Of a stretch of 64,000 nt of DNA, positions 5,650-60,678 are shown piece after piece. The translations under genes were made by a program, and so were the position numbers. Where the stretch lies: positions 11,156,235 through 11,220,234 of the forward strand of contig NC_057716.1 of assembly GCF_004010195.1 (NCBI RefSeq), in the 5' to 3' direction. This DNA is from Chiloscyllium plagiosum. Its lineage: Eukaryota. The notes under the pieces are model-generated. The model did not search any database, was not told where the DNA came from, and saw nothing but the letters and a program-made list of their open reading frames with translations. Position 1 is the stretch's first letter, and every line of letters begins with the position of its first letter.

Positions 5650-5689
5650 GCAAACGTTTCGTCCCCTGTCTAGGTGACATCCTCAGTGC
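5650..5689 (-). ncRNA. Minimal hammerhead ribozyme motif in the Penelope 3' terminus
   Basis: Minus strand reads GCA-CUGAGGA-U-GUCACC-UAGACA-GGGGAC-GAAA-CG-UU-UGC: both conserved boxes, stem II with one mismatch, 3-bp stem I (GCA/UGC) and palindromic ACGU helix III. Confidence 0.65.
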
Positions 5690-6271
5690 CTGGGAGCCTC
5701 CTGTGAAGCACTTCTGTGGTGTTTCCTCCGGCATTTATAGTGGCCTGTCCCTGCCGCTTCCGGTTGTCAGTTTCAGCTGTCCGCTGTAGTGGCCGGTATA
5801 TTGGGTCCAGGTTGATGTGTTTGTTGATGGAGTTTGTGGATGAGTACCATGCTTCTCGGAATTCCCTGGCTGTTCTTTGTTTGGCTTGCCCTATAATGGT
5901 AGTGTTGTCCCAGTCGAATTCATATTGCTTGTCGTCTGCGTGTATGGCTACTAAGGATAGCTGGTCGTGTCGTTTCGTGGCTAGTTGATGTTCATGGATG
6001 CGGATCGTTAGCTGTCTTCCTGTTTGTCCTATATAGTGTTTTGTGCAGTCCTTGCATGGGATTTTGTACACTACGTTAGTTTTGTTCATGCTGGGTATCG
6101 GGTCCTTCGTTCTGGTGAGTTGTTGTCAGAGTGTGGCTGTTGGTTTGTGTGCTGTTATAAGTCCTAGTGGTCGCAGTAGTCTGGCTGTCATTTCAGAGAT
6201 GTTCTTGACGTATGGTAGTGTGGCTAGTCCTTTGGGTTGCGGCATGCCCTCGTTCCGTTGTCTTTCTCTTA

Positions 6272-6840
6272 NNNNNNNNNNNNNNNNNNNNNNNNNNNNN
6301 NNNNNNNNNNNNNNNNNNNNNNNNNNNNNNNNNNNNNNNNNNNNNNNNNNNNNNNNNNNNNNNNNNNNNNNNNNNNNNNNNNNNNNNNNNNNNNNNNNNN
6401 NNNNNNNNNNNNNNNNNNNNNNNNNNNNNNNNNNNNNNNNNNNNNNNNNNNNNNNNNNNNNNNNNNNNNNNNNNNNNNNNNNNNNNNNNNNNNNNNNNNN
6501 NNNNNNNNNNNNNNNNNNNNNNNNNNNNNNNNNNNNNNNNNNNNNNNNNNNNNNNNNNNNNNNNNNNNNNNNNNNNNNNNNNNNNNNNNNNNNNNNNNNN
6601 NNNNNNNNNNNNNNNNNNNNNNNNNNNNNNNNNNNNNNNNNNNNNNNNNNNNNNNNNNNNNNNNNNNNNNNNNNNNNNNNNNNNNNNNNNNNNNNNNNNN
6701 NNNNNNNNNNNNNNNNNNNNNNNNNNNNNNNNNNNNNNNNNNNNNNNNNNNNNNNNNNNNNNNNNNNNNNNNNNNNNNNNNNNNNNNNNNNNNNNNNNNN
6801 NNNNNNNNNNNNNNNNNNNNNNNNNNNNNNNNNNNNNNNN
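6272..6840. other. Assembly gap (run of N)
   Basis: Unresolved bases within the Penelope element. Confidence 1.
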
Positions 6841-8935
6841 GGTCTGAGTGGGATGTCTGGTTTGTGCACTTTAGGTAGTCCATAGAATCTGGGGGTGTTG
6901 TTGCTTTCAGGTTTCATTCTTTGTAGGTCCAACCTGGTTATCTGTCTGTTTTTTTGTAGATTCCTCAGTGTGTTATTTATCCTATTGGTGAGCTGTGGGG
7001 TGGGGTCAAACTCCCTCTTTTGGTAGGGAATTTGACCCCACCCCACAGTTCACCAATAGGATAAATAACACACTGAGGAATCTACAAAAAAAGACAGATA
7101 ACCAGGTCGGACCTACAAAGAATGAAACCTGAAAGCAACAACACCCCCCCAGATTCTATGGACTACCTAAAGTGCACAAAGATGTAATGCAATCCTGGTT
7201 ATGCTGTTATGCAATAATCATACACCGGTGATATTGCAGCAAATCTGATAGGGAAGGGTCTTTTCATTACAACTCTGGCATAGGAATTTCTAACAGTAAA
7301 TAATGTTGATGTAAGACTTGTTAAATATTACTGTTTGATATTCTATGGAGAATTAGTGTATTGAGGTGAAGTATTGAGGTGAGGATGGCAGACATAGAAA
7401 ATAGGTGCCCTTCAGGGCTCCTGCGTCAATCAATGTGATCAAGGCTGCTTATCCAACTCAGTGCCCTGTTTTTGCTACCTCTCCATAATCTTTGATCCCT
7501 TTAACGCTAATATTTATATTTAATTCCTTCCAAAAAAAAATGCAATATTTCGTTTTTGGATGCTTTCTTTGGCAACAAGTTGTACCTTTCTCTCTGGATG
7601 AAAATATTTCTCATCTCATTGGGAGTGTTAATGAAATGTCAAATAGAAATGGCTAAAAGGAATTACTGTCCCACCCCTGAACTTCCTTTTCATTTAGGTC
7701 AGCTCCTCCTACAATCCTCTTATTGCCTATTTTATTACATTTTAAGTTTTGCTTTTGGTTAGCTGTTTTTTTCCCACACTGTCCCTTGGCAGAATTTATA
7801 CCTCACCTTGCCCTACTTTGTTAATTCATCACTGTAATAATTATTCATTCAGAAACAGAAATAAATCTGGCATGATTTTTGGGGAGAAAGTGGAGTTAAT
7901 GTTTCAAATCTGGTAACTCTTCACCACAATTATTGATTGGTGCCTGCCGCTCATTGGTTTAATATAGCAGCAAATTAAAATAAATGTTTTAGTTGTGAAA
8001 CGTTATCTTACAAATTAATTTGTATCTTATTAGCTAGATTGCAACATTCAATAGTAACTTTTTGTAGCTGTCTCTGTGGTACAGTTTCTCTTAGGTTTTG
8101 AGTTGAGATTTTGTGTTGCAATTTCACAATGTCAGCACAAACCACTGTATTGTAATTTATTTTCTTGAGTTTGTTCAACTTAATTTTTGATTTCCATGTT
8201 AGACTCTGTTATTCAGTTTTAAAAGGTACTGTCATCAGATTCTTTGAATGATCAAATTACAGTAATAGGTTTCAGTATAGGGTTTTGACATGTGTAACAG
8301 ACAGTGATAATTTTATAAGAATATTCATGGTGATCTGTTATGTACTCCCCATCTCGGGGAAAAACATTATTGTGATTGCCCTGTTTAATCTTGTCAAATG
8401 TTACTAAGTAGACTTTTTCCTACAGCTGATTGGGTTATTCTTTGTGGCTATTTCAATAGAGCATAAAAGTAACATTCTGAAATCAGGTCTGCATATGACA
8501 CCATTATGTTATTTAAACAAAAATTTATTTAACTAAACACTCATTTTGTCAGTTAGTATTTGTCAGTTAATCTTGGAAGCCTTGAGCCACCCACATTTGT
8601 AGTCATGGTTGGTGGTTCTTGTATAACTGTTTCTAGTTTCAACAAACAAGTTGAAACAAACTTACACTTTACTCTTCCAAAAGACCTATAAACTGTGAAA
8701 ATGTTTACTTTTAAAATAGATTAGATCTTTTGTGTTTCCTCGATTGTCTTGTTTCTTGCAATTAACAGCCCATTTCACGTCAGTTCTGCAATGTGCTTAA
8801 CACTCACTTAGTCTAAATTCATCATATTGCTATACTGCAAGCAGTGGTTTAACAGCTGTTTTTGAGGATGCCAGATGAAAGATAATTTCTACATTGCATA
8901 CTGAACTTGATCCATTGCAATCATTTTTGTTTCAG

Positions 8936-9111
8936 ACAACTCCTCAATGATGAAGATTTCACTTAAAAATAACAATAAAGCTTTGGCATTAGCACTTGCT
9001 GAAGAGAAGAAAAAGTATAGATTGTCTGAACAGGAAAAAGTAATTCTTCAAAAAGAAATATGTATTCAAAATTATGACATAGTTATGCTCCAGCAAAGGT
9101 TGACTACTCAG
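8936..9111 (+). CDS. SGO2: Shugoshin 2, N-terminal coiled-coil exon (first coding exon seen; upstream coding exon not located)
   Basis: tttcag|AC AAC...CAG|gtaaaa. Encodes NSSMMKISLKNNNKALALALAEEK, matching the SGO2 coiled coil (NSSIFKISLKHNNRALAQAL-type). Confidence 0.9.
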
Positions 9112-12659: not shown

Positions 12660-15320
12660 TATCTTAGCAAATCACTCTGTATCAAAACCACTACCCTTAT
12701 GAAAAGGAATGAAACCAGGTGAACCATTGGCATCAACTTAAGTACTGGAAATTGTAAAGTCAAACCCAGCCTGACTGTTCGGGTGGCTTTGCAGGGTCAA
12801 TCAGGAGTTTGTGCCAAAGTTAGGGAGAACATCCCCATTGACGAGTCAAGCATAGCTTGACTTAGTTATACTCAAGGAATTATTCCATACTCAAGTCTAG
12901 AGGACTTTGTATGTATGTATGTGTTGTATGTGTGTGTGTATGCATTAAATGTGACAGCACCATGATGTACCATTAGGAAGGAGTGTTGCTCTGGGAGGCC
13001 ACAACATTAACTCTGGGTTTCATGATGTCTCGTGGCATTAAGTCAAACATGGGCAAGCAACCCTTCTCTGATTACCATTTGTCACCAGCTCAACTGATCA
13101 ATCAGTACTCCTCCACTAGTTAGTGGAAATACTGAGGTTGCAGAATGTATTCTTGGTGGAAGACTTCAATGTTTATCACCAGGTATGGTTATATAGTGCT
13201 GATTGAGCTGGCTGAATCCTAAAGGACACTGCTGGTGATGATCAGAGAGCCAGCAAGAGAGAAAGCTAAACTGATGTCACTCTCCTCAAACTGCCTACAT
13301 CTGGCCATGAGCATGTAGGTAGAAGTAATCACTGTACATGTCATTGTGCTGCCAAATCTTGTTGTCATATTGATATGTTGGGTTATGTGCATGACATTAC
13401 TATTGTGTTAAATAGAATACATTTCAGATAGATCTAGCAACTCAACTGGGCTTCCATGAAACCATCAACTGCAGAATTATATCCGTACAGAATTAATCTG
13501 TAGCTCATTTGGAGCATATCTCTGCAATCTTCTATTACCATTAAGCTAGGAGATGAACCCTGCTTCATTGAAGAGTGCAGAGGAGCATACCAGGAGCAGC
13601 ACCAGTCATACCTAAAAATGGGGTGTCAACCTGGTATAGCCCTGGTATAACGCAGAATTACTTGCAAACAAAACCATGGAAGCAGCATGCAATAAACATG
13701 ACTAGATTAGAGTTGCGCTCGAAAAGCACAGTTGGTCAGGCAGCATCCGTGGAGCAGAAAAATCGATGTTTCAGACAAAAGCCCTTCATCAGGAATGGAG
13801 GCAGGGAGCTTTCCACATCCATCAAAGCTTCACCTGCACATCAACCAATGTCATTTATTGTATCCGTTGCTCCCATGCTGTCTCTTCTACATTGGGGAGA
13901 CTGGACGCCTCCTCGCAGAGCGCTTTAGGGAACATCTCTGGGACACCCACACCAATCAACCCCACTGCCCCATACCCCAACATTTCAACTCCCCCTCCCA
14001 CTCTGCCAAGGATATACAGGTCCTGGGTCTTGTCTGACGCTTGGAGGAAGAACACATCATCTTCCGCCTTGGAACACTTCAACCCCAGGGCATCAATGTG
14101 GACTTCACCAGTTTCCTGATTCCACCCCCCCCCCCCCACCTTACCCCAGTTCCAGACTTCCAGCTCAGCACCATCCTCATGACCTGTCCTACCTACCAAT
14201 CTCCCTTCTCACCTCTCCACTCCACCCTCCTCTCTAATCTATCACCTTCATCCTCACCTCCATCCACCCATTGTAGTCTTGTTACCTTCTCCCCAGCCCC
14301 TCTCTCTCTTCCAAGTGTGGCATCTAGGACTCTAGCAAAACTGGAGGCAGTAGGAATCTGGTTGGTTGGGTAGGGGTGAACTTTCCACTGGAGCCATACG
14401 TAGTGCAGAAGATGATGGATGTGGTTGTTCAAGATAAGTAATCTGTCCTGGGCTGTCAGTGCAGGAGTTCCTCAGAATACTGTCCCAGGTCTAACCATCT
14501 CCAGCTGCTTCAATTATGACTTTCCCTCTACCATAAGATCAGAAGTGGAGGTGTTCACTCATTCTGTTTAGCAATGTTCACCATGTCTTAGATACTGAAG
14601 CAGCTATGGCTACATCCAGCCATACCTGGTCAACATTCAGGCTTAGACTAAAAAGTGACAAGTAACACAAATGCCAGGCAATGGTAATCTCTAACGAGAG
14701 AGAATCTAACCATCTCCAATTGATATTCAGTGGAATTACCATCTCTGAAGCCCCCACTACCAATATCTTGCAGCCTAACATTGACCAGAAATTGAATTGG
14801 ATCGGTTATTCCTTATTGTCTGAGGTCGGAGGCTAGGAATTCTGCAGTGACTGACTTTCCTCCTGTTTCTCTGTGCCTGCTCACCATAACGTATGGGATA
14901 GAATACTGTTCACTTACCTGGATGGGTGCAACTCCAAGCACACTCCAGAAACTCAATCAGCATTTTTAACCTTCGCCACCAACCTATAGTGGGCAGCAGT
15001 AGGTACTACTTACAAGATGCACTGCAGCAAATTGCCCTAGCTGCTTTACAACTACAACCCTATGCACCTAGAAGGATAAAGTCGGCTAGATAGGAATGTC
15101 ATCACTTGCAAATTCCCCTCCAAGCTACGTTATCCCGGCTTGGAACTGTAGTGTTCATTCTTTTATTGTTGCTTTGTCAAAATCTTGGAACTTCCTTTCT
15201 GCAATATTGGTGTCCTGACAAGCACTCCAGAAATTCCAGAAGACAGCTCCTTATGACTGTCTTAAAGGCATTTATGGATGAGCCATAAATGTTGGCCCAG
15301 CCTTCCCCTGAAGGAACATA
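12660..15320 (+). mobile_element. Old degenerate non-LTR retrotransposon (CR1/L2-superfamily-like), interrupted by a Penelope fragment
   Basis: Decayed GDFNVHH-like endonuclease motif near 13160. Decayed [20 protein letters not shown] motif near 14460-14560. Confidence 0.55.
13705..14310. mobile_element. Penelope-like element fragment (second family) with inverted terminus
   Basis: + strand TSTNVIYCIRC...YIGETGRLLAERFREH GIY-YIG remnant at about 13800-14100. 13705-13800 is the same family's terminus in the opposite orientation. Confidence 0.8.
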
Positions 15321-22399: not shown

Positions 22400-23110
22400 C
22401 AGTCTAACCCATCTACACTGACCATGTGCCCAAACCAAACTAGTCCCGCTTTCCTGCACTTAGCCCATATATTGTCCCTGATGAAGGGCTCTTGCCCAAA
22501 ACATCGATTTTCCTGCTCCTCTGATGCTGCCTGACCTGCTGTGCTTTTCCAGCACCACTGTGATCTAGACTCTGATCTCCAGCATCTGCAATCCTCACTT
22601 TTGCCATATTCCCCCAAACCTTTTCTATTCATGTGCTTATCCAAATGTCTTTTAAGTGTTGTAACTGAACCTACATCCACTACTACTAAAGTTAGTTCAT
22701 TCCACATTTTGAAAAAAACATGTCTCTCATCTTAAAAATATGCGCTTTTGAATATTCCATTTCCTAAGGAAAAGACTATTGCTATTTACCTTATCTAGGC
22801 GCCTCATGATTTTCTTGATCTGTAAGGTCACCCCGCAACCTCCTACGCTTCAGTGAATAAAGGTCCCTGCCTACCTTTTAGTCAAACCTTCCATTCCTGG
22901 CAATGTCCCGGTAAATCTTTTCTGAATTCTCTCTAAGTATTAATCTCCTGTCGTAGGGTGACCAGAACTGTACATAGACCTCAGTGTCCTATACAATCTT
23001 AACATGATATCCCAATTCCAATATTCAAAGCTCTGAGCAATGAAGGCAAGCATGTTAAGTGCCTCCTTAACCACCCTGTCTATATTGCAGGTTTCAAATA
23101 ATTATGTACT
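22400..23110 (-). mobile_element. CR1 3' fragment with a nested Penelope-type terminus (about 22477-22600)
   Basis: Reverse-complement CR1 tail (LKRHLDKHMNRKGL) split by ctgatgaagggctcttgccc...ccagcatctgca. Confidence 0.7.
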
Positions 23111-39343: not shown

Positions 39344-39446
39344 CTTTAAAATTATGGACACAGTAGGTGACGGGCTCACCATGAACAGGCGTGTATTTAA
39401 TTTCAACTGAACCAGGACCAGGCACAACAAAGTCTGCAGCTCTGTA
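39344..39446 (-). CDS. IDH1: IDH1 coding exon 3 of 8
   Basis: ccacag|TAC AGA GCT GCA GAC TTT...AAA G|gtaaga. Encodes [20 protein letters not shown]; 103 nt. Confidence 0.95.
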
Positions 39447-40023
39447 CTGTGGACAAAATTTTTATCCATGACTAAATAAGAATCAAAACAATGTTAGACT
39501 TTATATTTTTCAAGCCACATTCAATGAGGGGTTTAACTTTCATTCTAATTGAATTAAAATGATAAAGCTCATCAGCCAAAACACCCAGATTAAAATAAAT
39601 CACTCGATAAGCTCTTAACAATTAGTAATGATTCAGTCAAAATAGCATTATATTTTGAATTGTTCTATTTCGGTTCAAGGTTTCTCAAACTGTGGGTGAT
39701 TGCAAGAATGAAAATTTGTGTCTTAAGCTCAATGGCTACCATGCACTTCAGTCTGAAGGCCTACTGCTGCAAGAGCTCCTCAATCGTTCACTTGTTTTGT
39801 GTTGGCAGATATGCCCTGAGGGACAGATCTTCAAGATCAGATTGCCTCCAAAAACAAAATGGCCCGTGAAAAGGTATTTGTTTTTACAAAACTGCAAGGA
39901 TAAATTCTTGATATCAGGTTGTTGCTCACCAGCTGAAGCTCATCTCCACCACTGAGCAAATAAAGCTTCAATCTACTCAGCAGCTGAAGCCCACAATTGT
40001 TCCCACTCAACAGATGAAGATCA

Positions 40024-40115
40024 TTCCTGATGAAGGGCTTATGCCGGAAACGTCGGTTCTCCTGTTTTTCGGATGCTGCCTGACTGGCTGTGCTTTTCCA
40101 GCACCACACTTTTCG
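40024..40115 (+). mobile_element. 92-bp Penelope-terminus mini-insertion with 15-bp TSD
   Basis: aacagatgaagatca at 40009-40023 and 40116-40130. The insert matches the terminus of the 37413-39192 element. Confidence 0.85.
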
Positions 40116-40364
40116 AACAGATGAAGATCACTCTCACATCTGCTCAACAACTCCCATACCCTCGCATATGTTCAGATTTGGAATAGGTTTGGCAAGCACT
40201 GCAGTCATGGTTTTTAGGATTGCAGTTCCCTGCTATCCATGATCATCTGGCATTGTTCACCCATGTGACTATTACTTGCATGTAAGCTTTTACAATAAAT
40301 GTCCACTGGCTCTTCAATTACAAGAGCAAATTACAGCTAACAGCAATTCCATGATCACATAAAT

Positions 40365-41290
40365 AGAAACATAGAAAATAAGAGCAGGAGAAAGCTGTTT
40401 GGCCCTTCCGGCATGCTCCACCATGCAAAATGACAACGTCTGATCATCCAATTAGTGCCCTGTTCCCATTTTTTCCTCATATCCTTTGATCGCTTTAGAC
40501 TCAATCATTGTATCTAACTAATTGAAAACATTTGATGTTTTGGCCTCAACTGCTTTTTGTAATGGAAAATTTCAAAGGCTCATCATGCTGGGTAAAGATA
40601 TTTCTCCTCACCTTAGTCCTAAATGGCCTACTTTGTATCCTTAAACTGTGACCCCTTATTCCAGACTCCCCAGTCATCAAGAACATTGTTCTTCTTTATC
40701 CTGTTTAGTCCAATTTGAGTATGAGGGGTTTATATAAGAACCCCCTCATTTTTCTGAACTCAAGTGAATATAGTCCAAAATGATACAGTCTTTCTTCACC
40801 GGTCAGTCCTCCTATCTCAGGAAACAGCCTGGTAAGCCTTCATTGTACTCCCTTCACAGCCAGAACATCCTTCCTTAGCTAAGGTGACCAAAAGTGCACA
40901 CAATACCCCAGATGTGATCTCACCAGGGTCCTTTATAATTGCAGCAGGATATCCCAGCTCCTGAATTCAAATCCTCTCACTACAAATGACAACATAGCAT
41001 TTCCTTCTTGACCATCAGCTGCACCGGCCTGTGTATTTTGAATAACTGGTGTACAAAGAAACTTGGGTCTTTTTGCACCTCCCTCTTTCCCAATCTATCA
41101 CCATCCACATAATAATCTGCCTTCCTGTTTTTGCTATTAAAATTGATAACCTCACATTTATCCATATTCCACTTCATCTGCCATGCATTTTTCTACTCAC
41201 TCAACTTACCTAAATCACAGTGAAGTACCTCTGCATCCTCACAGTGCATCCTCCCTCCAGCTTTGTGTCATTAGCTAACTGAGCAAATTC
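40365..41290 (-). mobile_element. CR1 LINE 3' part, older
   Basis: MKWNMDKCEVINF...LGKREVQKD remnant. Tail atagaaacatagaaaat. Confidence 0.7.
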
Positions 41291-41849
41291 ACTCATGCGC
41301 TTAGTATTTAAGTGTAAGTCTGTTGAAGTCCAATATTAAGTTTGAAAATTGACGTGGATTACCAGAAAAAGAACAACATTCCCAAGTTAAATTAATATTT
41401 ATAATATTAATTCAACCATTAATAGTATTAATATTTCCAAAGCATATGTAAAATCTTTACTGATGATCCAGCATTTGACAAAAAGAATATTTTCTTTGTG
41501 GGTGTCAGGTATAATACCATTCTTCAGTTGACAGATGGCCAGCGGCCCCGTGATTACAGGTACAAATAAATGTAAGTAGAATTTAACAGTGTGCAAAAAG
41601 ACATGATTTTCTGTCCTGTTTAGAAAATTAACAACTAAATTATTTTCCACTTAAGGGGTGATGATATCCAGTGAAAATTCTTTGTTGGATTTACTGTTCC
41701 ATGGAAAGTATTGTGGAGAAGTTGATCCTTCATAATTTATCATGATCTTAACATATGAAGCATTTTCAACTCATTTACTGACCATTCACTGAAAGGTATT
41801 TAGTAGTTTCTTCAACTCGCTATAATTATTAAATCAACGTCCAATAATA

Positions 41850-43650
41850 GTCATAGAGTAATAGAGGATGTACAGCATGGAAACAGACCCTTCGGTCCAA
41901 CCCGTCCATACCGACCAGATATCCCAACCCAATCTAGTCCCACCTGCCAGCACCTGGCCCATAACCCTCCAAACTCTTCCTATTCATATACCCATCCTGA
42001 TGCCTTTTAAATGTTGCAATTGTACTAGCCTCCACCACTTCCTCTGAGTAAAAAAGTTGCCTCTTAGGTCACTTTTATATCTTTCCCCTCTCACCTAAAC
42101 CCCTCTGGACTCCCCCACCCCAGGGAAAAAAAACCTTGTCTATTTACCCTATCCATACCCCTCATGATTTTATAAACCTCTAAAAAGGTCACCCCTTAGC
42201 CTCCAACGCTCCAGGGAAAACAGCCCCAGCCTGTACAGCCTCTCCCTATAGGTCAGATCCTCCAACCCTGGCAACATCCTTGTAAATCCTTTCTGAACCC
42301 TTTCACATTTCACAACATCTTTCCAATAGGATGGAGACCAGAATTGCACGCAGTATTCCAGCAGTGGCCTAACCAATGTCCTATACAGCCGCAACATTAC
42401 CTCCCAACTCCTGTACTCAATACTCTGACCAATAAAGGAAAGCATACCAAATGCCTTCCTCACTATCCTATCTACCTGCGACTCCACTTTCAAGGAGCTA
42501 TGAACCTGCACTCCAAGGTCTCTTTGTTCAGCAACACTCCTTAGGACGTAACCATTAAGTGTATAAGTCCTGCTAAGATTTGCTTTCCTAAAATGCAGCA
42601 CCTCATATTTATCTAAGTTCAACTCTATCTGCCACTTCTCAGCCCACTGGCCCATTTGATCAAGATCCCGTTATAATCTGAGGCAACCTTCTTCGCTGTC
42701 CACTACACCTCCAATTTTGGTGTCATCAGCAAACTTACTAACTGTACCTCTTATACTTACATCCAAATCATTTATATAAATGACAAAAAGTAGTGGACCC
42801 AGCACCGATCCTTGTGGCACTCCACTGGTCACAGGCTACAGTCTGAAAAACAACCCTCCACCACCATCCTCTGTCTTCTACCTTTGAGCCAGTTCTGTAT
42901 CCAAATGGCGAGTTCTCCCTGTATTCCATGAGATCTGACCTTGCTCACCAGTCTCCCATGGGGAACCTTGTCGCACTCCTTACTTAAGTCTATCTAAATC
43001 ACATCTACCACTGTGCTCTCATCAAAAGTCTTTGTTACTCCATAAAAAACTGAATCAAGTTTGTGAGACATGATTTCCCATGCATAAAACCATACTGACC
43101 ATTCCTAATTACTCCTTGCCTTTCCAAATATATGTACATCCTGTCCCTCAGGATTCCCTCAAACAACTTGCCCACCACCGACATCAGGTTCATTGGTCTA
43201 TAGTTTCCTGGCTTGTAATTACCACCTTTTTAAACAGTGGCACATGTCAGCCAACCTCCAGTGATCTGGCATCTCACCTGTGACTATCAATGATACAAAT
43301 ATCTCAGTAAGAGGCCCAGCAATCACTTCCCTAGCTTCCCATAGAGTTCTAGGATACACCTGATCAGGCCCAGGGGATTTATCCACCCTTATGGGTTTAA
43401 GACATCCAGCACTTCCTCCTCTGTAATATGGACATTTTTCAAGATGTCTATTTCCCTACATTCCATATCTTCCATGTCCTTTTCCACAGTAAACACTGAT
43501 GTAAAATACTCGTTTAGTATCTTCCCCATCTCCTGCAGCTCCACACAAAGGCCACCTTACTGATCTTTGAGGAGCCCTCTTCTCTCCCTAGTTACCCTTT
43601 TGTCCTTAATGTATTTGTAAAAAAACCCTTTGGATTTTCCTTATTCTATA
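41850..43650 (-). mobile_element. CR1 LINE 3' part
   Basis: ORF 42170-42655 GQWAEKWQ...LYRTLVRPLLEYCVQFWSP. Same family as the 19390 and 33905 copies. Confidence 0.92.
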
Positions 43651-43914
43651 CATTTGTTATTGTCTGTGCATCTTGACTGGCCATTCCTCAAGTCAGCAAA
43701 AAAGTGGTTACCAAGTGAGACTTATACAAACTCACACCTATCAATGTAATTAGACTGTGTGCTGGTCCATCAGCTTAGTGCATTTAGGTTTGATCTCTCA
43801 ACAGCATTCCTTGGCAAGCATTTCACTGAAAGAAAATTATGGTAAACTTTCTGCGGACATTGGTATTTTTGAAATTAATATGGAAGATATGTCCATGAGA
43901 TCACTGGAAATGAT

Positions 43915-44198
43915 TATAGAATCCTTACGGTGTGGAAGCAAGCCTTTTGGCCCATCGAGTCCACACTGACCCTCAGTATAGCCCACCCAGACCCACTCCC
44001 CTATCTTATCCAGTAATCCTGCGTCGTTTATGGCTAATCCACCTAGCCTGCACATCCCTGGTCACTGTGTGCAATTTAGCATGGCTAATCCACCTGATCT
44101 GCATATCTTTGGACTGTGGGAGGAAACCCACGCAGATACAGGGAGGACGCTGGCACTGTGAGGCAACAATGCTAACTACTGAGCCACCATGCTGCCCA
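43915..44198 (-). mobile_element. HE1-type SINE, internally deleted
   Basis: Reverse complement gggcagcatggtggctcagtagttagc...gcgtgggtttcctcccacagtccaaagat. Confidence 0.8.
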
Positions 44199-47100
44199 TA
44201 TCTAATCATATGAACAGTATTTCAACATTCGTGAGTGCCAACATGGATCAATACTAAAACATTGAGATCAATTTCCCAGCCAATTAGAGATGGAAGGGAT
44301 GAAATAATGTCTCCATGTCACTACTAGATTTTGAGAAAGGTGGTTAACAGGAAGGAGGACTTTGCACTGACACACTTCAACTAACTTCAATTTGACCAGG
44401 TTTTCCTATATTTCCAAACATATGTAAAAACCATTAGACTTCAGTTCCTTGCCTGGTATAAAGGAGGCAGTTACATTAGCAGATGTCACTTGTGACTCCA
44501 TTCGGCAACCATCATGAACAGCTTAGCATTTAAAGTGACAAGAGAGGCATTTGCCTTGTTATAGGGAAAAGGATAAAATATAAATGCCAAAACTATTACA
44601 GCGTACTGCTACAATGCCATCCTAGAGTTGACACTTGTGTGGCTATTGATAACTGAGTACATCTATCTGCTGTTGGCCTCATTCTTTAGGATTTGGGACT
44701 TCCACTGAAGTCAGGGAGGGAAAGAATTAAAGGCAATGGCGACGGCAAACCAGAGGGGCAGAAAGGGTGGCTGCATTGGGGTTGCACATCATGGCAATGT
44801 GTTGCACACTGCACAATCTGGCATCTGTAAGTATCCCTTCATCTGAAAGATTGCAGAGATTCAAGACAACAACTCTGCACCACCATCTCCAGTGCAATTA
44901 AGAATGAGCAATAAACGCATCCTGTAAACAAATAAAAATACTGACACTTTGACAATGGGAATATCTCACAGCATGACATCTGCTCCAATGATGAGGAAAT
45001 GTAGGAAGGTAATAACTGGCTCAGGATGCAAAGCAATCTAGGGCAGATAAAGATGCAATGAGAAAAACATAGGGGAGGTTGGGGACAACAAAACAGACAA
45101 ATTTCACATGATCTTCAATGTCAGATTTCTGTAATTCAATAAAGCTTCAGCACTCTACATTCCTTTGCTGCTTCCTTCATTGACCTTGCCATGTATTTGC
45201 ACACACTAAGACATTAGATAGTGGTAGGAGGAATAATTCAATCTTATACAGTTTTGTCCCACCCATTAACCAAGTGGCCAAGCCAGGGTCATCTGGAAGT
45301 CTCAGAAGCCCACTGAAATGCAAAGAAACCTCATACTTACTGATGAATAAAGAAAAAATGCCAAACAGCATGCTTTGACCTATTAACTCAAGAGTGCAGC
45401 TAAATCCTCTTTGTAAATCTTTGAAATGTGTTTCTACATAGTGCTCCCCCTGCAACATCAACTGAAGTTGAGGCAGGCTGCTGACTAGCTTTGAATGACC
45501 TTGACAGGCATCCTCCGCTTGCCTGAAGGCTGGTGGATGCTGACATATCAAGGACCATTTGCACAGTTCCAGCAGCCTGCCATCTCAGCCAATGAGGCAT
45601 TAGTGTCATAGATGGATGAGCTGAGGAGCCATTGCTAATGGCAGAAACATCCCAACTGGAGTCCATAAATGCTTCAGCAGTCACTCCACTATCGTTTCAA
45701 TGCACAGCTGCACCCCTGAAGAGTGCGAAGACAGAGAGTGAGTTCAGCTGTCTCGTTCAGCCACTGATGCACAATGGTCATGGAATTACCAAAATCTTTA
45801 AGGTCCATGTGCACCTACCACATCCACGAGATGCTGTTTTCCATAAGGGTCACCAGCATTGTTCTTCTCAGGGTCGCCAAGCTCATAATGGGGGAAACCA
45901 ACTGTGCATACACCAGGTATTGCTGGTGTGACCTACATGTGATGTAACTGACTTTTAACTACCCTCTGAAATGGCCAAGCAAGCCTTTCAGTTCACAAAT
46001 AATCAAGGATGGACAGCAAATGCTAGCCTTGTCAGCCATACTTGCATTTCATGAAATAATAAAATAAATTATACTTCTCTCAACTAAACAGCAGCAGTTC
46101 CTGCTTCCAGTTTCACCAGTAAGACCACTAGCCTTAATGAAAAATTCAACATGTGATCTTTGTATCAGTTTAAATTTGACTGAAAACTGATTTGATCGCT
46201 TTCTGTTGTAATTTTTTTCAATCTTTTCATTAAAGTAACATTAATTTTCTTAAATGAATCAATGTTTTTAGCCACAATCTTCCATGCAAACATTTTCAAC
46301 TATTGATCACAAAGATAGGTTCAATTAGAATCCATATATCTCTTTCAAGAAAGAAATTATCCATATATTCTTATTAAGAGTATATTAAGATGAAAATCGA
46401 CACAAGGGAGATCATTTTTTGAGCGATGACTAAAAGCTAGACACTGGTTAGTAAGGCTGAAAAGGAAGTGACAATCCCTTTCCACTCATGTCCATTTAAA
46501 GGAATAAGATGTAAGTTAGCCTTGATTTCTGCTCTAATTCTGCACCTGTCTACCTGTTCCATCCAAGTATTTTTACAGTTTCATATGTAACTTAATCTCT
46601 TCTGTTTTTATAGACAGGCCTTCTCATAAGCATGCTGTCAGAAAGTAAGTTTTAGTCTGAGAATGAAAAAAGAAAACAAAATAGTTAAGAATTGAACAAA
46701 GATAAAATGTGAGGAGACAAAGATTCAGACTTAGTAAACTAAAAACAGTACAATAGAGAAATAAGAAAACAGAGAGAAATTAAAATGCAAGGAAATACAG
46801 GATGATGTAAACTATTGGGATAAACTAAGAAAAACATTAGTGAGAAAAAGTATTTTAAAAATAAATATTCCTTAGAAACAAAGGATAACAATAAAATTAA
46901 AAATTGTGCACTAATTTGAAATAATGTATAATGTCTGTTAAAATTAATTGTATAAAGATTGAGTTTTACATTATTTTTAATAAAACTGACATCAATCATT
47001 GCATTTGTTATCACCTTCGCCTCCAATTTGATTGCAAAATGTATAAAATTGCTTTTCAAAGCAAAGCTCATGTTTGGCTTTATCATTATTTTGCCATTTT

Positions 47101-47239
47101 AGGATCACCTGTTTACTAATGCAACATAGTTTGCAGATTCTGCATTATTTATTAACATTTGCTCCAAGGTTAAACTCAAGGTTTAAATACTACCATTAAA
47201 CTGTGTTAGTCTGTACAAAGAAAGTGTTTAATTTACTCG

Positions 47240-47765
47240 CCTTCATCGCTCACATCTTTGAGTATAGGAGTTGGGACACAGTGTTGATATTGTAAAAGGT
47301 GTGGCCTCCTCTGGAACACTGTGTCCAGTTTTGGTTGTGCTGTTCTAGGAGGATATTATTAAGCTGGAGAGGATTCGGAATAAAATTACCAGGATGTTGC
47401 AGGGAGTTAAATAATAAAGGAGAGGCTAGATAGGTTGGGACTTCTTTTTCACTAGAGTGTAGGAGGTTAAGGGGTTACCTTCTACAGGGTTATAAAATCA
47501 TAACAGTTTTAGGAGAAAGATTTAAAAAAGACATTTTTTGTTTTACACAGAGTGCTGCATGTATAGAATAAACTTCCAAAGGAAGTGATGAATGTGGGTA
47601 CAGTTATAACGTTTAAAAGACATTATGATAAATACATGAATAAAAAATATGTTTAGAGGGCTATGGGTCAAGTGCAGGCAGGTGGGACTCATTTAGTTTG
47701 GGATTATGATCGGCATGGACTAGTTTGACTGAAGGGTCTGCTTTTGTGCTGTGCAACTCTATGAC
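47240..47765 (+). mobile_element. CR1 3' fragment
   Basis: ttgagtataggagttggga...gaagggtctg...ctctatgac, similar to the other CR1 3' ends. Confidence 0.7.
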
Positions 47766-49287
47766 AATTCGTAGATAGTTATAAACCATCAGGTGAATTT
47801 TGCTCTTTACCTCAAATGATTTTTATAAGTTTAACACTTGGCAGATAATATATTTCCATGTTTCTTATCTTTACAGTAATATCCCTATCCCTGTTCATGA
47901 ATAGTGACCAAGGGACAATTAATTACTCCAGAGTAAAGTACAAACAAAGTGAGTAAAACTTGAGGAAGTAATTTACAGAGACTTCCAAAACTGCATACTA
48001 TGGGTATCGAGTACAGAGAACAGACTCCAATTTTCAAACATTATCAAAAATATTGTGCTTTTCTGACATGATTCTATTATAATGAACATACACTCAACAC
48101 TAAAAGTATATGCAGGGTTCTTTTGGAAAGGGAGAAAGGAGTGGTTTCAATATAAAGTATTCTGCCTGCCTTTTTCATGGGGAATATATACTTTTAATAC
48201 ACTCATCTTATCAACTTCGAGAAATTTTTCTATCTTCCAAAAACGATCATGTTGGCCATCATCATGTTTCCATTGATTAAGCCAGAAGACTATTTTAGAC
48301 TGGCCCAGCTGCCAATTTGGTGGTATCCAACAGAATAAAAGCAAATAGAAGTGGAGGGTTTTTTTCACGTTGTCTTCTCCAGGTTTACCTATATGCCAGT
48401 TCAAAACTTTGTCTTTTCCATTAATCAATGATGGTATATAGAATACACCTATAATCATCACAGTACCTTCACCCAGCAAAGCAAAATGACATATTTCCAT
48501 GAACAATATCTCTTCTGCATATGAATCAAGGAGCAGAAATTCTGCACTGACAAACTTGAACAAAATTTGTTACTGTACACATAAATTGTTTATTCCCTAA
48601 CTACATTCCATCTATTAGTAAGTCAAAATAGAAAAAAATAAAAGTTTACTTGTAGCAGACCATTTAGAGTGGAGATTGGGATTTAGGTATTTAGATTTCT
48701 AATGTCTGCACAGGACTGATATTTATACTCATTTTTATTTGAAATGTGGAATTAATAAACTTTTCAGATTAATATGGCTGAGTTTTATACTGTTACAACC
48801 AAACAATGTTCCAATGATTTTACTGAATCAATATTGACAGCTATCATAACTTTAGTTTCAGCACAGTTGGTGAGACTGCATTGTTATACATCATCCAGAA
48901 CCTAAGAGGTACTGTAAAATCTTGGCTCTATTGCTGCATAACATATTGACACCAGAATTAAGGGACAACTACCTTTATGGCCACTAAAAGAGTGAACAGC
49001 TCTTTGAAATAGTTCCAATGTAGATAGCCCAGAAAAAGAAAATAAGAACGAACAAAAATTTGACTTTGGTGGTTACAAAGCAGTTTTGATAGAAATTCTG
49101 GCGCAATTGTTGCACATTATTCAAACTAACAGTGCTGAAATCAGTAAATGAGCTAGCAATTAAGCTATATTCAGTTAAGGTCACAAGGACTTAAAATATT
49201 TTTACTCTTTAAAAGATTATCAAAATAACAGTGAGTCAAAGATCTTTCAGACTTACATTTTACGACACTAATTAAATTACTATTTCA

Positions 49288-49611
<324 letters not shown>

Positions 49612-50574
49612 CTACTTTCAAACAAAATCTACTTGAAATACATGATATTGATACTGAATATTTATTTTTCAGAAGAATATTTATGTACTTCTCCTTTGAA
49701 AGCACACAGGATTATAGATTATTACTGTGCCAGTGAAAGGTCTATGTCCATTCAGAAGAGACTGAAGTTTCTTGTTTAGACTGAAGTTGAAACACAAACT
49801 TAAAACTAAAATAGAAATCCAAAGGAATAGGTCCACTGTCAATCCACTATTAAAGGCATTTATATTCCAGAGCCAAATCTCAAGTTTCAGCATAAAATAA
49901 TAAATTTAATATATACATTAATTTGGTTACATTGTACTGCTAAAAATGTTCTATTGTGCAAGATTTTTCAAATTATTTTGTATGTGAAACAGGACAGCAA
50001 AAAAAAACTGGAACTAGCAATTTAGTAAAAAATTATTTTAAAATTAATTTACATTTCTTCCTAAATTAACCATCAAATTAAATGTAAATGTCTTTATTCC
50101 TTCTTGTAAAACTATAAAATCTAGTAATTGGACTGCTGTTCGTCTTCTACAAAACTCTCTTGACATCCAGCGTATGTTTAGTCTGTAAAAGCATGAACGC
50201 ACTTTCTGCAATTTCTTGTTTGAAGGTGGCCATCTTAGTTGTTTTGCATGTCTTCACACATACTTTTGTTTTTGGGGAATTACAAGGAAGTGGTATAAGG
50301 ATTCAGAAGTGAACATTCATCTCATTGCTCCCTCTTGAACACATTTCTGTGGCCAACAGGTAGTGAGGCATTACCCAAATGAGCTACAATTCCTTCATGG
50401 CAACCTTCTGCAGTGGCTCTATTCATGGCTAACCACGATGAAATGAACCCAGAGGCTAACCCATATGTTATCGTACCACTAACTTGTTGGAGAACAGATA
50501 TCATTTAATTCTTTATTTACAAAAAAAAATCCATTGTGGTTGCTTCTTTTTTAACTTTAAATAGTCCTTGTACA

Positions 50575-50748
50575 TCCACAGCCCAAAGATGTGCAAATCA
50601 GGTGAATTGGCCATGCTAATTGCCCATAGTATTATGTTCATTAGTCAGGGGTAAATATAGGGTAGGAGAATGGCTCTGGGTGGGTTACTCTTTGGAGGAT
50701 TAGTGTGGACTTGGGCCAAATGGCCTGTTTCCACACATCTAATCTAAT
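50575..50748 (+). mobile_element. HE1-type SINE 3' half
   Basis: ccaaagatgtgc...ggtgaattggccatgctaa...ggcctgtttccacac(atcta)n. Confidence 0.75.
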
Positions 50749-51529
50749 CATAACTCAGATCAAAGAACATATACTAAACATCAATTTCCACAGAAAACAC
50801 TATTCTTCCTTCTCCCTATTAAAAAAAAGACAAATAACTTAAAAGCAGGTACAGAATAAATTTCCTAGAGATTCATCTAACCACTGCTCAAACAGCATTA
50901 AAAAGGAAGATGGGATTACACAATTTTTTTTAAATGCCCATGTCCAACTACTTTCCCAAAAATCCAAATTCATTTTGAGACTGAAGTCTAGGAATGTAAG
51001 ACTTAGGAGCAGGAGTAGGCCATTTGCCTTTTGGATTATTCTGGCAAATATTCCTGCCCTCCCTCTCCCCAGAAGATGTTTTATTTTCTGGATTTCAAAT
51101 TGTTTAACTACTTCAATAAATAAATTTGCATAATTGTTTTTAAAAACAAAGTCAAACAACTGTAAATAATTATTAACACACATTTACTAAACATTCCCAT
51201 GAAACCCAAGTTAGTTATCCTGATTAATGGAAGAAATTTACCTTGTAGGGAAATTATAAACTTTTTTTTCATATGATATCAGGTCAGTTGATGTGGCATT
51301 AGGTTAAAAATATGCATGTTTAATCTTTAGTTTGTATGGAGTTAGCCAACATCAATCAGGATAGTAATTGTGTCAGAGGAAAGAACAAACATAATTAAAC
51401 TTATTGTGGCAAAGTTATGGGAAGACACATATCAGCCATGACCCACTTATTGTTTTCTTTCCTGTAACCCCAACAGGAAGAGTGCTGTCTATGGAGGTCA
51501 AGGGACAGTTGGAATTAAACAACAGTAAA

Positions 51530-51665
51530 ATCTAAAAAAAAACCCTGCAGATGCTGTAAATCAGAGACAAAATTAGAAATTGCTGGAATAGCTCCGCAAG
51601 TCTGCTAGCATCTGTGTAGAGAAATCAGAGTTAACATTTTGGATTGAGTGACCCTTCCTCAGAAC
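51530..51665 (-). mobile_element. Short Penelope-type terminus with a decayed hammerhead motif (51630-51665)
   Basis: ctgcagatgctg...gcatctgtg architecture. Minus strand reads GUU-CUGAGGA-A-GGGUC-ACUC-AAUCC-AAAA-UGUU-AAC. Confidence 0.55.
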
Positions 51666-52202
51666 AAAATAATAGTAATAGTTCCTAAAAATAACATCTA
51701 GCCTGACTCAAACAAAAAAAGTCAATAGCTTTAACACAATAGTCCTCAACAGTATTTACCTCTTTCATGAAAAAGAGAGCCAAAATTAAGAAAACAATCT
51801 TTTATTTATATACACTTTAGGTCATTTCTACACACATTACACTGGGAAAGTTCTGAAAACACAAGATAAATTAATACAGTTTGAAAATGTAGATAATAAG
51901 TTTGCTGTTTATTGAATTTTTTTTATATTTGGAAAAAAATGCTTGGTGACTCAGTAATTTGGTGAATCAGCAATTTTACTTGCATATGTTTACTCACCCA
52001 GACAGCAAATTGTGCAATAATCACTGATCCCTATTTCATCAGCTCGCAACAGACAAAAACCATTTATTTAAAAATTGAAAAAATTGGAAAATGTAAGTCT
52101 TAATTTTGAAGCAAAATGTGGATTTTATATGCTCGGTTTCTTGAGCCAATAAAACGTTTAAATTAATAAAAGCCATATTTGAAATGTTCACTAAGTTACA
52201 AC

Positions 52203-52327
52203 CTGTGTAGGTCTATCTCCATATAGGGGAAGAGGAGTTTCTCTTTGATCAGTTCCCATATAACTCTGGTCATCTCATCTCCTTTCATTTCCACCACAGA
52301 ACCAACTTGGATCTTTTTACCTGACAT
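52203..52327 (-). CDS. IDH1: IDH1 first coding exon (ATG at 52327; exon begins at 52342)
   Basis: Encodes [41 protein letters not shown], ending AG|gttgta. No mitochondrial leader, so IDH1 rather than IDH2. The eight exons sum to 1245 nt. Confidence 0.96.
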
Positions 52328-53663
52328 TGTTTAGTTTAATTTCTGCAAAGAAACAAGAAAAGATAAAGTAATCCATTCAGAGTACCTTTTCTATGAACAG
52401 TATCCTACATATATTTGAACTTTTGTGTTAAACCTTAAAACTATTGTAGTATTGTAGTAACTTTGTTAGATCACTCCTGCCAAATCTGATTAAATTTCAA
52501 CAGCTTAACCTCATGATGAAACCAAAGATTCCAAGTTGATGTAATGTAACTCCCGAAACTGGTTTTTCAATCATGTGAATGCCAAAAACTGACATTACAC
52601 ATCTCAAATACTTTAAATAAAGTACAACGCATTCACACACTTTTATGATCTTCATCCATCTTAGGATCTTCCATGTAAATTGGCTGCATTCCTGCAATCT
52701 GCAGCCTGTCACTTCTCAGTGACTGTAGATTATCACAGTAAAAAAAAAATCAAACGTTTAGCATTAGGAAGTGTAAGAGTGAAAGTGTAGTTTGGAGTAC
52801 ATGCAGAGACTTTTCCCCTGCTATATAATGGACGCTCTCTAGTCTATTTCTGGAATCTGGCACTTGAGGTCACTCTCTCAATATCACGAGAAGGAATTTA
52901 TTCAAACGGCCATGAATCTTTCAAATTCTCCACCAAAGCTGTGGATGTTGAAATCAGCCACTGTATAACCAAGACAGAGATGGATGAATAGATCTTTTTG
53001 GTGGTGGTGGTGGTGGTGGGGAAGGTGATATTGGCTAAAGGTATCAAGAGGAATGCTAGAAGTGTTAGACAGTGCAACCCGAGATAGAATTTTATGATTT
53101 GAACGGTCAGATGGCCCATTCCTGCATTTCTTAAATAAAAACCAAGTGACCAGCAGAAACAAAGACCAGACGTACTGACAGGCTGATCTTCAATAGTGTG
53201 AGAAAAGAAACCCACATAATTCTTATCCCATGGCAGTATTTCCGATACAGGCGTCTCTCTCTGCCTGCCTGCCTTGCCTGTCACCACTTGTTTGACGGAT
53301 CTTGTACTTTGCACCACAGAGACCTCTTCCTGCTATTACTCCAGCTCTCATTGCAAATGCTATGTGAGTTGGGTGGGACTGGAAACCCTATCAACCCCAA
53401 TCGGGGATGGGAGAGAAGAACTCGAGATTGAATCAGCGAAAGTGTCGATCGTGTTTTAATTTAAACGACCCGTTGAATCGTCGAGGGGTGTGTGCAGGAA
53501 AGAGAACAACATAATAAAGGAATTCCTTCTGGCTTATCAGCAGCGGTGGTGCCAAGAAGTCCATTCACCTTTTTCTTGAAGTTTCGACCTACTTTAAGTG
53601 GTATCGTTACTGAAATAGTGAATGGGATGGGGGCGGGAGGAGATGAAGAGAGACATCCCTCAC

Positions 53664-55945: not shown

Positions 55946-56680
55946 GGTTGCAAGTTTACTTGCTGAGCTGGAAGGTTGGTTTTCAGATATTTTGTCACCG
56001 TGCTAGTTAACATCATCAGTAAGCCTCTAGTGAGACGCTGGTGTTCTGTCCCACTTTCTATTTGTGTGTCTCGGTCTCTCGAGGTGGGTGATATCATTTC
56101 TGTTTCTTTTTCTCAGGAGGTTGGTAAATGGGATCCAAATCGATGTTTTATTAATGAATTTCTAGTTTGAATGCTAGGCCTCTAGGAATTCCCGTGTGTG
56201 TCTCTGTTTAGCCTGTCTTAAGATGGATCTCTTATCCCAGTCAACAAGAAACTAGATACCAGGATACACAAACACCAACTATCCACCAAAAAACATGACC
56301 CACTGTCACTTGTATCTTTACATACAGACAAAGAAGGACACCACTTTGACTGGGACAACACATCCATTCTAGGACAGGTGAAACAGAGACACATATGGAA
56401 ATTCTTAGAGGCCTGGCATTCAAACCAGAACTCCATCAATAAATACATTGATTTGGACCCCATTTATCAACCTCTGAGAAAAAGAATCAGAAATAATATC
56501 ACCCACCTTAACAGACCAAGACAAATAAGTAGAAAGTGAGACAGAACACCAGCGCTTCACCAGAGGCTCACGGATGATATTACCTAGCATGGTGACAAAA
56601 TGTCTGAAAACAAACCTTCCAGCTCAGTGAGCAAACTTACAACCTGAACCTCAACCTGAGCTACAAATCTTCTCAAAATG
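55946..56680. mobile_element. Penelope-like element 3' end as an inverted pair (related to the 5575 family)
   Basis: + arm encodes HHFDWDNTSILGQ...LEAWHS...SINKYIDLDPIY. 55946-56220 is its inverted copy. Decayed hammerhead motifs at 55984-56021 (-) and 56569-56606 (+). Confidence 0.8.
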
Positions 56681-58849: not shown

Positions 58850-59400
58850 TGTGCGAATGACTGCTTTTGACATCAGGTGCACATTTTACTGAGTGTCACA
58901 TCAAGCAGCCCTAGCAAAACTGGAGTCAGTGAAAATTAGGATGAAAACTCTGCTGGTTGGAATCTGACTCAGCACAATGTTTGAGATTGTTGGAAGTCAA
59001 TAATTACAGCTCCAAGATATCTCTGCAGGATCTCCTCAGGATAGATATATTTCTAATCAAGCTGTTCAGAAGTGATATTACACACCACTGGAACAGAAGG
59101 AACTTGAACATGGGCATCCTGTCTTAGAGGTATGGACGCTAACCACTGCACAATGTAGTTGATGAATCCACAATGTTCAGAACAATTTGTGATTCCTCAG
59201 ATACTCAAACAACCCATGTCTATATGCAGCAGGACCTGGGCAATATCCAGTCTTAAGACTAAGTGGCAACTAACATACATGCTACACAAGTTCTAGGCAA
59301 TCACTGTCTCCAACATGAGAAAATCTAATTATTGTGCTTGACATCAAATGGCAATTGAGTACCCCACAGTGGAGTTGCCATTGATAAGAATGAACTGGAC
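58850..59400 (+). mobile_element. Old LINE RT fragment (same family as 12660-15320)
   Basis: ctgcaggatctcctcagg...tcctcagatact...atgcagcaggacctgg...aatatccag parallels 14460-14800. Confidence 0.45.
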
Positions 59401-59544
59401 CAGACAATGGGGGTTGGATCTGCCTAAGTCCCAGATCCAACGAGTATATGAACTGCTCTAGATCAGTTACAGAATAGAGATGAATGAATAGTACAAGTCC
59501 AGCATTTAAATACTGGGCGACTGGACCAGTGTCATGCCGGATGA

Positions 59545-60465
59545 AGAAAAACCCTTTGCTCCAACTCGTCCATGCTGACCAGATTTCCCAAACTAAACTC
59601 ATCCCATTTGTCGGTGTTTGGCCACTATCATTCTAAACCTTTCCTATTCATGTATAGGACCAAATATCTTAAATGATGTAACTGTTCCGGCATCTACCAC
59701 TTCCTCTGGCAGTTCATTCCATATACACACCACCCACTTTGTGAAAAAGTCACCCCCCCAGTTCCCTTTAAATTTTTTCCCTCTCAGTTTAAACCTATCC
59801 CCTTTAGTTTTGAACTCCCATATCCTAGGGAAAAAGACCTTAGCTATTCACATTTTCTAAGCCTCTCATGATTTTATAAACCTCTTTAAAGGTCATGTCT
59901 CAACTTACTATGCACCAGAGAAAAACATTCCCAGCCTATCCAGTATCTCCTTATAACTCAACCCTTGCAGTCCCAGTAACATCCTTGTAAAGCTTTTCTG
60001 CATCCTTTCTAATTTAATATTTTTCCTACAGCAAGGCGATCAGGCTATATGCAGTACTCCAAAAGTGGCCTCACCAATGGTCCTGGACGGAAGTGGATAC
60101 TGCACGGAAGTGGGGATTAAAGTCAAGATTAGAGTGGTACTGAAAAAAGCACAGCAGGTCAGGCAGCATCCGAGAAGCAGGAAAATCGCCATTTCGGGCA
60201 AATGCCCTTCTGATGAAGAGCTTTTGCCCGAAATGTCGATTTTCCTGCTCCTATGATGCTGCCTGACCTGCTGTGCTTTTCCAGCATGCACCAATGTTCC
60301 TCAACTTGATGTCCCAACTACTCTTCTCAATGTTTTGACCAATGAAGACAAGTATGCCAAATGCCTTCTTCACCACTCTGTCTACCTGTGACACCACTTT
60401 CAAGGAATTATGTACGTGAACCCCTAGGTCTCGCTTTTCAACAACATTCCCCAATGCCCTACCAC
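59545..60465 (-). mobile_element. CR1 3' part with a nested inverted Penelope-terminus hairpin (about 60085-60289)
   Basis: RDLGVHVHNSLKV...VVKKAFGIL remnant. The insert is flanked by caccaatg(g/t)tcct direct repeats. Confidence 0.8.
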
Positions 60466-60582
60466 TAAAATCTAATCTAATCTAATCTAACTGCATCAGA
60501 TGGTAGAAATTCTGCAGTAAACAACACACTTCCTGATTCCTCAAACTTGTTCACCACCTACACCTCCACTTATCTGGAAGGG

Positions 60583-60678
60583 ATCACAACCACCTGATGA
60601 AGGAGTGGCGCTCCGAAAGCTAGTGTGCTTCCAATTAAACCTGTTGGACTATAACCTGGCGTTGTGTGATTTTTAACT
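60583..60678 (+). mobile_element. 96-bp mini-insertion consisting mostly of a hammerhead motif, with TSD
   Basis: Flanked by tta(t/c)ctggaaggg at 60570-60582 and 60679-60691. Confidence 0.7.
60591..60625 (+). ncRNA. Minimal hammerhead ribozyme motif (intact core)
   Basis: CAC-CUGAUGA-A-GGAGU-GGC-GCUCC-GAAA-GC-UA-GUG: stem I CAC/GUG, stem II 5 bp, palindromic AGCU helix III, predicted cleavage after A60622. Confidence 0.7.

Follow-up and report, generated by a model that had tools for sequence, protein, structure and literature searches.

Minimal hammerhead ribozymes (min-HHRs) of Penelope-like elements (PLEs) are the closest described system to the motifs that we report here. In the available text of PMC4209133 they occur in fish Poseidon and Neptune elements, have a type I core with one base after A9, a G10.1-C11.1 pair and palindromic positions 15.2-16.2, fall into several covarying families per genome, are mostly present as single copies and form opposite-strand pairs 100-700 bp apart. 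We have analysed a 64,000-nucleotide stretch of bamboo shark DNA (Chiloscyllium plagiosum, contig NC_057716.1; the window, below) in which the same core, family structure and opposite-strand pairs recur, with the differences that sharks are not named in that text and that helix I comprises only 2-3 bp. The motifs in the window are very probably minimal type I hammerheads, mostly decayed, that belong to the pseudo-long terminal repeats (pseudo-LTRs) of five or six PLE families, and we propose a mechanism in which they cut dimeric RNA.

Three further systems invite comparison, each as the published text available describes it. The Anolis Poseidon element PAc resembles the shark elements in that its genomic ends lie downstream, in the 5' part of the open reading frame (ORF), and show two end positions (tail), in that its RNA template is unprocessed and in that its ORF begins at hammerhead stem II (PMC11167929). 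It differs in that two shark families (P1 and P2, below) also have the stop codon of an upstream ORF in loop II, in that the Neptune-type and N3 families here show no ORF-hammerhead overlap, and in that N3 has a poly(A) site beside the motif, none being described for PAc. The insertion unit of endonuclease-positive (EN+) PLEs has a similar 5' truncation, an adjacent inverted truncated copy and a 30-40 bp tail on one arm (PMC8557442), whereas the shark window contains no full-length or partial-tandem copy. Non-LTR retrozymes likewise combine a type I hammerhead, a pseudo-LTR origin and dispersed monomers (10.64898/2026.07.22.740005), but no tandem units are present in the shark window; one chondrichthyan genome carries both retrozymes and PLEs (10.64898/2026.07.22.740005), and the families tabulated for it may overlap the shark families described here.

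An initial annotation of this stretch, made from the sequence alone, had placed any novelty in the families and the lineage. That holds in so far as the members come from a bamboo-shark-type genome, whereas the architecture, the covariation, the palindromic helix III and the opposite-strand pairs have already been published, as the available text of PMC4209133 attests. The window adds stop and start codons inside the hammerhead in Poseidon families and, in N3, polyadenylation past the predicted cut, and it extends a published hammerhead class, here very heavily represented, to genomes of the bamboo-shark type.

Motif inventory and decay

All 11 hammerhead-like motifs of the initial annotation were recovered, with the same coordinates, strands and stems. 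A descriptor (helix I of at least 2 bp, CUGANGA, 0-1 base, stem II of 4-8 bp, GAAA, a palindromic pair and UH) matched the window twice with zero mismatches and none of 30 dinucleotide shuffles; there were six matches with at most one mismatch (shuffle mean 0.17, maximum 1, n=30) and 11 with at most two (shuffle mean 2.5, maximum 5, n=10), seven of the latter being sites noted earlier and four apparently being background. The motif set in the window exceeds chance. The descriptor does not capture sites 22478, 39102, 40027 and 56571, whose recognition depends on their 80-95% homology with sister copies, and an Rfam scan of the window gave no hammerhead family match for any of these sites. Because 37510/39098 and 55984/56569 are each the arms of one fold-back insert, the 11 sites represent nine insertions; with two additional remnants, 60121-60210 and 320-433 (both on the minus strand), the total comes to 13 hammerhead remnants in 10 insertions, or one per 4.9 kb in this single window. 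These PLE inserts occupy 4,987 bases (7.9% of the window), in agreement with the heavy repeat load claimed at the outset. The density of strict matches, two per 63 kb (95% confidence interval 4-114 per Mb), compares with 9,000 motifs, or about 6 per Mb, in Xenopus tropicalis, where a different descriptor was used.

The core (CUGANGA, GAAA and UH in type I order) has no mismatch at seven of the 11 sites, one mismatch at three and two at one, and a single base stands between A9 and 10.1 at every site. The G10.1-C11.1 pair is kept at eight sites, is G.U at one and is broken at two, while the helix III palindrome, ACGU or AGCU, is present at three and has been lost by CG>CA/TG/TA in the other 8/11 copies. 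The G12>A changes in four copies and C11.1>T in one are also all at CpG (window CpG observed/expected = 0.28). If a copy is called intact when core, stem II closure, palindrome and a helix I of at least 3 bp are all kept, then decay is not confined to 51630 and 55984/56569, where it had been correctly recognised: only 5650-5689 and 60591-60625 are intact and the other nine of 11 are damaged. No selection is visible on the genomic copies, which are the debris of insertion and not ribozymes of the host.

Families and parent elements

The motifs had been assigned to about five distinct repeat termini. Five or six families can indeed be told apart, but they amount to only about three lineages. Families P1 (5650) and P2 (55984/56569) are 68-69% identical to each other; the tail of N2 (51630) shows 73-77% identity to the GGGC family, N1, and N1 (seven arms), N2 and a remnant at 320 have a common tail at 70-78%; N3 (60591) stands by itself.

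Covariation was assessed across five families, each represented by one least-decayed copy in a hand-registered row, with the invariant G10.1-C11.1 left out. In helices I and II, 28 of the 30 stem positions that vary are paired, and stem II position 4 and helix I between them show every one of the four Watson-Crick pair types. When the 3' arms were permuted among families the mean was 14.2 pairs and the true order was the best of 120, which is the floor of a small permutation test on five related, hand-picked rows, uncorrected for phylogeny. Helix III does switch between two palindromes, as had been reported, from ACGU to AGCU in N3. Double-sided compensatory changes within families were seen in none of them. 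The stems therefore pair across families, as initially claimed, but the covariation is suggestive rather than proven because the families reduce to about three lineages; the pairing retained across the five is consistent with the selection on RNA structure in the parent elements that had been put forward, and lends it support.

In five of 11 cases the motif comes immediately after a GIY-YIG ORF has ended (families N1, P1 and P2), which supports the earlier attribution to PLEs, and close relatives carry a reverse transcriptase (RT; PF00078) in the same chain as the endonuclease. Among named proteins, those of Chiloscyllium punctatum come closest (82-90%), followed by those of other carpet sharks and rays. 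The match to PF01541 in the P1 insert (5581..7185; 90% to C. punctatum proteins) has E=0.025, and that in the N1 insert at 37414..39193, both arms of which carry GIY-YIG ends with a zinc-finger linker, has E=2.3e-4, each under the cut-off. The window contains no whole RT plus GIY-YIG ORF, only an RT N-terminal piece in the P1 insert, and no ORF attached to N2, N3 or the 320 remnant; we infer that the stubs at 60591, 51630 and 320 belong to PLEs.

In N1 a CX2-5CxxC zinc-finger linker precedes GIY-YIG, and no linker zinc finger was seen in P1 or in protein P0015. Such a linker is a feature of Neptune, with none in Penelope/Poseidon, according to the available text of PMC8557442. N1 thus appears to be Neptune-type and P1 and P2 Penelope/Poseidon-type, names that rest on linker and ORF-start features because our tree held no reference elements. 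In that tree, of 21 RT-thumb/endonuclease rows, the shark Poseidon proteins group with flatworm, soft-coral and unnamed proteins (95/99). We note that, outside sharks, the closest named relatives of the shark Poseidon family come mainly from parasitic flatworms (44-56% identity) and also from a soft coral; the family may possibly have been transferred horizontally. A pattern scan for N-group copies found 0 in viral contigs and 0 in metagenome contigs, and an N3 20-mer scan gave a single bacterial match, L001, a chance one that lacks a hammerhead. We also note that the annotated shark and ray isoforms P0016, P0026, P0030 and P0006 (MAP3K7, NT5DC1, EYA3-like and DIPK1C) contain or end in Penelope-like endonuclease sequence, through either exonisation or an annotation artefact.

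Insert ends, polyadenylation and a proposed mechanism

Inverted arms are present in six inserts (13700, 37414, 55946, 60081, 320 and 6861), and target-site duplications (TSDs) are clear at five of the 10 inserts (15, 15, 9, 8 and 8 bp) and unclear at the other five. Among the 13 hammerhead-bearing arms, five extend into the ORF and eight begin in a zone from about 17 nt before to 6 nt after C3, a clustering that memoryless truncation would give with P from 0.003 to 1e-8 (mean runs of 100-600 nt; zone chosen post hoc). Each of two DNA runs has about 500 contigs in which the match to the N1 copy breaks off shortly before C3 and the upstream sequence is of low agreement. None of the hammerhead-bearing arms starts at the predicted cut, all genomic copies spanning it, and we infer that the 5' boundary marks either where the RNA begins or where RT stopped, rather than the site of cleavage. 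Head-to-tail tandem copies are absent from the window, the nearest same-strand pair being 925 nt apart with separate TSDs.

Two RNA and the two DNA runs were aligned to 55900-61200 at 85% likeness. One RNA run, X10, contributed 0 reads; the other, X9, is a single-cell poly(A) RNA run of one sample, of which 12.96 million records (about 2% of the run) were read. Since just 104 of the 5,886 matching X9 reads are at least 99% alike, the signal is family-wide and not locus-specific. Among the matches listed, 434 reads carry poly(A) after 60651 and 538 after 60654 (972 in total, about 75 per million records read), that is, 12-15 nt past ATTAAA and 29-32 nt past the predicted cut, where the DNA is not A-rich; DNA contigs of the N3 family show AATAAA in place of ATTAAA. 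N3 carries a working poly(A) signal. The N3 insert ends a further 28-31 nt downstream of the poly(A) site, so that copying of the inserts did not begin at the polyadenylated end. Judged from their geometry (150 nt, of which 67-69 are loose at the 3' side, with loose 5' ends at 60585 and 60591) and not from a count, these reads likely span the whole uncut motif, although a templated A-tract in some N3 subfamily may be another source of them. We located no report of a poly(A) signal beside a hammerhead in a literature search that covered few subscription papers and is thus weak evidence.

In the mechanism that we propose, two pseudo-LTR hammerheads on one parent RNA would likely pair through the 4-base palindrome and, probably aided by the element's protein, would cut after H17 to give unit-length RNA, as the available text of PMC4209133 and PMC11167929 suggests. 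RT would prime at the nicked target, start 60-110 nt downstream of the hammerhead and copy through the uncut site, which implies that the template is uncleaved or re-ligated RNA. Stubs (8/13 arms, ending just upstream of the core) would arise where RT reached the RNA 5' end, longer copies where it continued into the end of the ORF, and fold-backs by template switches.

Several observations weigh against this account. Folding energies do not improve on those of shuffles, with z-scores of -0.76 and 0.06 for the intact copies and of -1.66 and -1.61 for two N1 copies, which fold otherwise; the probability of helix I is only 0-0.06 with 30-nt flanks, and a double-hammerhead fold lies 6.6-14.7 kcal/mol above the dimer minimum. 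Helix I has 2-3 bp here versus 4-5 bp in the schistosome motifs described in the available text of PMC4209133. The evidence for covariation comes from five least-decayed copies that were registered by hand and represent about three lineages, N3 is not linked to an ORF, and the Pfam GIY-YIG matches, at 15.3 and 21.8 bits, are under the curated cut-off of 22.6. Lastly, no read-end pile-up was seen among the X9 ends listed, in an oligo-dT library that can hold neither cut product. The abundant families, the sharp 5' boundary and a poly(A) site that follows the predicted cut by about 30 nt would make end-mapping easy, and these elements are of use as a test bed for the role of the hammerhead in PLEs (PMC8557442, PMC11167929).

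Competing explanations and genomic context

The cleavage step, and that step only, is contested by the possibility that the motif is kept as an RNA structure, for protein binding, end pairing or strand transfer, and rarely or never cuts in vivo, which we consider somewhat unlikely. The poor folding energies are as expected if this were so; published min-HHRs cut poorly alone, with very low in vitro rates (PMC4209133, available text), mutants of the anole hammerhead left in vitro insertion unaffected and no RNA-seq ends were seen at its site (PMC11167929, available text), and every genomic copy in the window includes the cut site, as would the 972 polyadenylated, likely uncleaved reads among the matches listed. 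Yet lineages whose stems are unrelated have retained the bases of the catalytic core, addition of protein led to cleavage of the anole motif that depended on C3 and G8 (PMC11167929, available text), and an oligo-dT library is blind to cut products.

It is also conceivable that the pseudo-LTR is organised like a retroviral U3-R-U5. The RNA would then start just before the hammerhead and receive poly(A) about 30 bases after it, terminal hammerheads would pair as a deadenylation switch or strand-transfer bridge, and the 90-140 bp stubs would be integrated strong-stop cDNAs. We regard this as doubtful; if it were true, many genes of the shark would also receive poly(A) sites gated by a ribozyme from scattered N3 copies. 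Our literature search, which covered few subscription papers and is thus weak evidence, located nothing on point for strong-stop or template switching, or for shark PLEs.

Alternatively, the stubs at 22477, 40023, 51525 and 60585 might be separate non-autonomous families, similar to short interspersed elements (SINEs) or to retrozymes, with a life cycle of their own. That four stubs occur solo, are 90-140 bp long and in two cases have clear TSDs, that sequence upstream of the N1 core is of low agreement in some 500 contigs per DNA run, and that monomeric retrozymes derived from pseudo-LTRs have been described (10.64898/2026.07.22.740005, available text) would all fit. We nevertheless think it distinctly unlikely: the window has no head-to-tail tandem, the N1 stubs are 83-95% identical to ORF-attached copies, start points vary between copies (about -17 to +6), and N3 reads and contigs extend upstream into common family sequence.

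Coding was named in the initial annotation as something that might account for the motif, and in P1 and P2 the motif is indeed read as protein, whereas the other three families are non-coding. In P1 and P2 a long ORF reads through the hammerhead core and ends at the TAG in loop II, and the ATG at A9 opens a second frame; in protein P0050 of C. punctatum this second frame carries on into RT. The P1 tail frame is 95% identical over 39 residues to the N-terminus of the RT-bearing P0050, and the peptide over the P1 hammerhead (5561-5689, minus strand) recurs behind the endonuclease in Clonorchis P0020 (64%, 25 residues, E=4e-5). The core of P1 and P2 is thus the last codons of an ORF in one frame and the start of an ORF in another, as one would expect of a by-product of protein-coding or DNA-level terminal constraints. 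This explanation is very unlikely for the motif as such, since N1, N2 and N3 have the same core without a long frame over it. The corresponding frame stops early in N1 and in N3, so the common core cannot be put down to coding, and synonymous or amino-acid constraint leaves the paired changes unexplained.

The exons of IDH1 extend from about 52,300 to 28,900, so several hammerhead copies are intronic; that some of these have been domesticated as host ribozymes regulating IDH1 or neighbouring genes is exceedingly unlikely, for although two copies are intact, the other nine of the 11 carry damage, chiefly at CpG, the intronic copies on the sense strand (37541 and 51662) are decayed and the intact 60594 copy is antisense to IDH1.

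Table 1. Coordinates of PLE inserts, hammerheads and coding features in the window (strand "." denotes arms on both strands)
Feature	Position	Strand	Details
Sixth, N-related family remnant	320..480	-	damaged 5' core; inverted tail-only arm
P1 parent Penelope/Poseidon insert	5581..7185	-	tail 5581-5649; GIY-YIG end 5670-6125
P1 hammerhead, intact	5650..5689	-	predicted cut after 5653; helix I GCA/UGC; stem II of 7 bp, including one A.G mismatch; palindrome ACGU; TAG stop in loop II; ATG at A9
P1 insert, remaining parts	6272-7185	-	gap in the assembly, 6272-6840; RT N-terminal piece and its inverted arm, 6861-7180
N1 fold-back, Neptune-type	13700..14304	.	decayed short hammerhead arm 13761-13796 (-), head to head with GIY-YIG end (+), which lacks its own hammerhead
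N1 solo stub	22477..22605	+	decayed hammerhead (G12>A, ACAU); begins 1 nt before C3
IDH1 coding exons, approximate span	28860..52330	-	E=1e-51 to cytoplasmic NADP isocitrate dehydrogenase
N1 fold-back	37414..39193	.	15-bp TSD; hammerheads 37510-37545 (-) and 39098-39133 (+); in IDH1 intron
N1-subfamily solo stub	40023..40116	+	15-bp TSD; begins about 4 nt before C3; ACGU kept; G10.1-C11.1 broken
N2 solo stub	51525..51665	-	decayed hammerhead 51630-51665; in IDH1 intron; tail related to N1
P2 fold-back, Poseidon-type	55946..56680	.	8-bp TSD; GIY-YIG ends on both arms
P2 hammerheads, decayed	55984-56021 (-) and 56569-56606 (+)		within insert 55946..56680
N1 fold-back, two short arms	60081..60288	.	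60210-60243 (+), 60121-60210 (-); pivot at hammerhead core; 8-bp TSD
N3 solo stub	60585..60682	+	9-bp TSD; intact hammerhead 60591-60625, CAC/GUG, AGCU; predicted cut after 60622
N3 poly(A) features	60634-60682	+	ATTAAA 60634-60639; poly(A) after 60651 and 60654; GU-rich stretch downstream
GIY-YIG ORF ends	5670-6125, 37680-38399, 38579-38944, 56054-56242, 56222-56539

In the P1 insert, 6842-7185 is a near-perfect fold-back of the RT N-terminal piece, with arms 93% alike and a pivot near 7020, and adjoins the 569-base assembly gap; an Rfam match to mir-3151 at 6981-7060 is explained by this fold-back hairpin. In the N1 insert at 37414..39193, a pyrimidine tract at 39040-39101 (plus strand) that ends in CAG about 17 nt before C3 resembles a 3' splice site, and no donor was found for it; the start of the 13792 arm, too, falls near the position equivalent to that CAG.

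The GC-rich stretch at 60860-61070, about 200 bases from the intact N3 stub, has two copies of an 18-base motif and is likely the IDH1 promoter region. An 890-codon open frame at 16166-18838 (plus strand), a large host exon with a 186-nt internal duplication at 17410-17781, was not identified by Pfam or Atlas search. Numerous pieces of a different, abundant repeat that encodes an RT and resembles long interspersed elements (LINEs), a provisional name, lie at 10-600, 19400-20420, 34000-35280, 41870-43050, 57900-58320 and 59500-60450, and one of them is the repeat inside which the 60081..60288 N1 fold-back sits.

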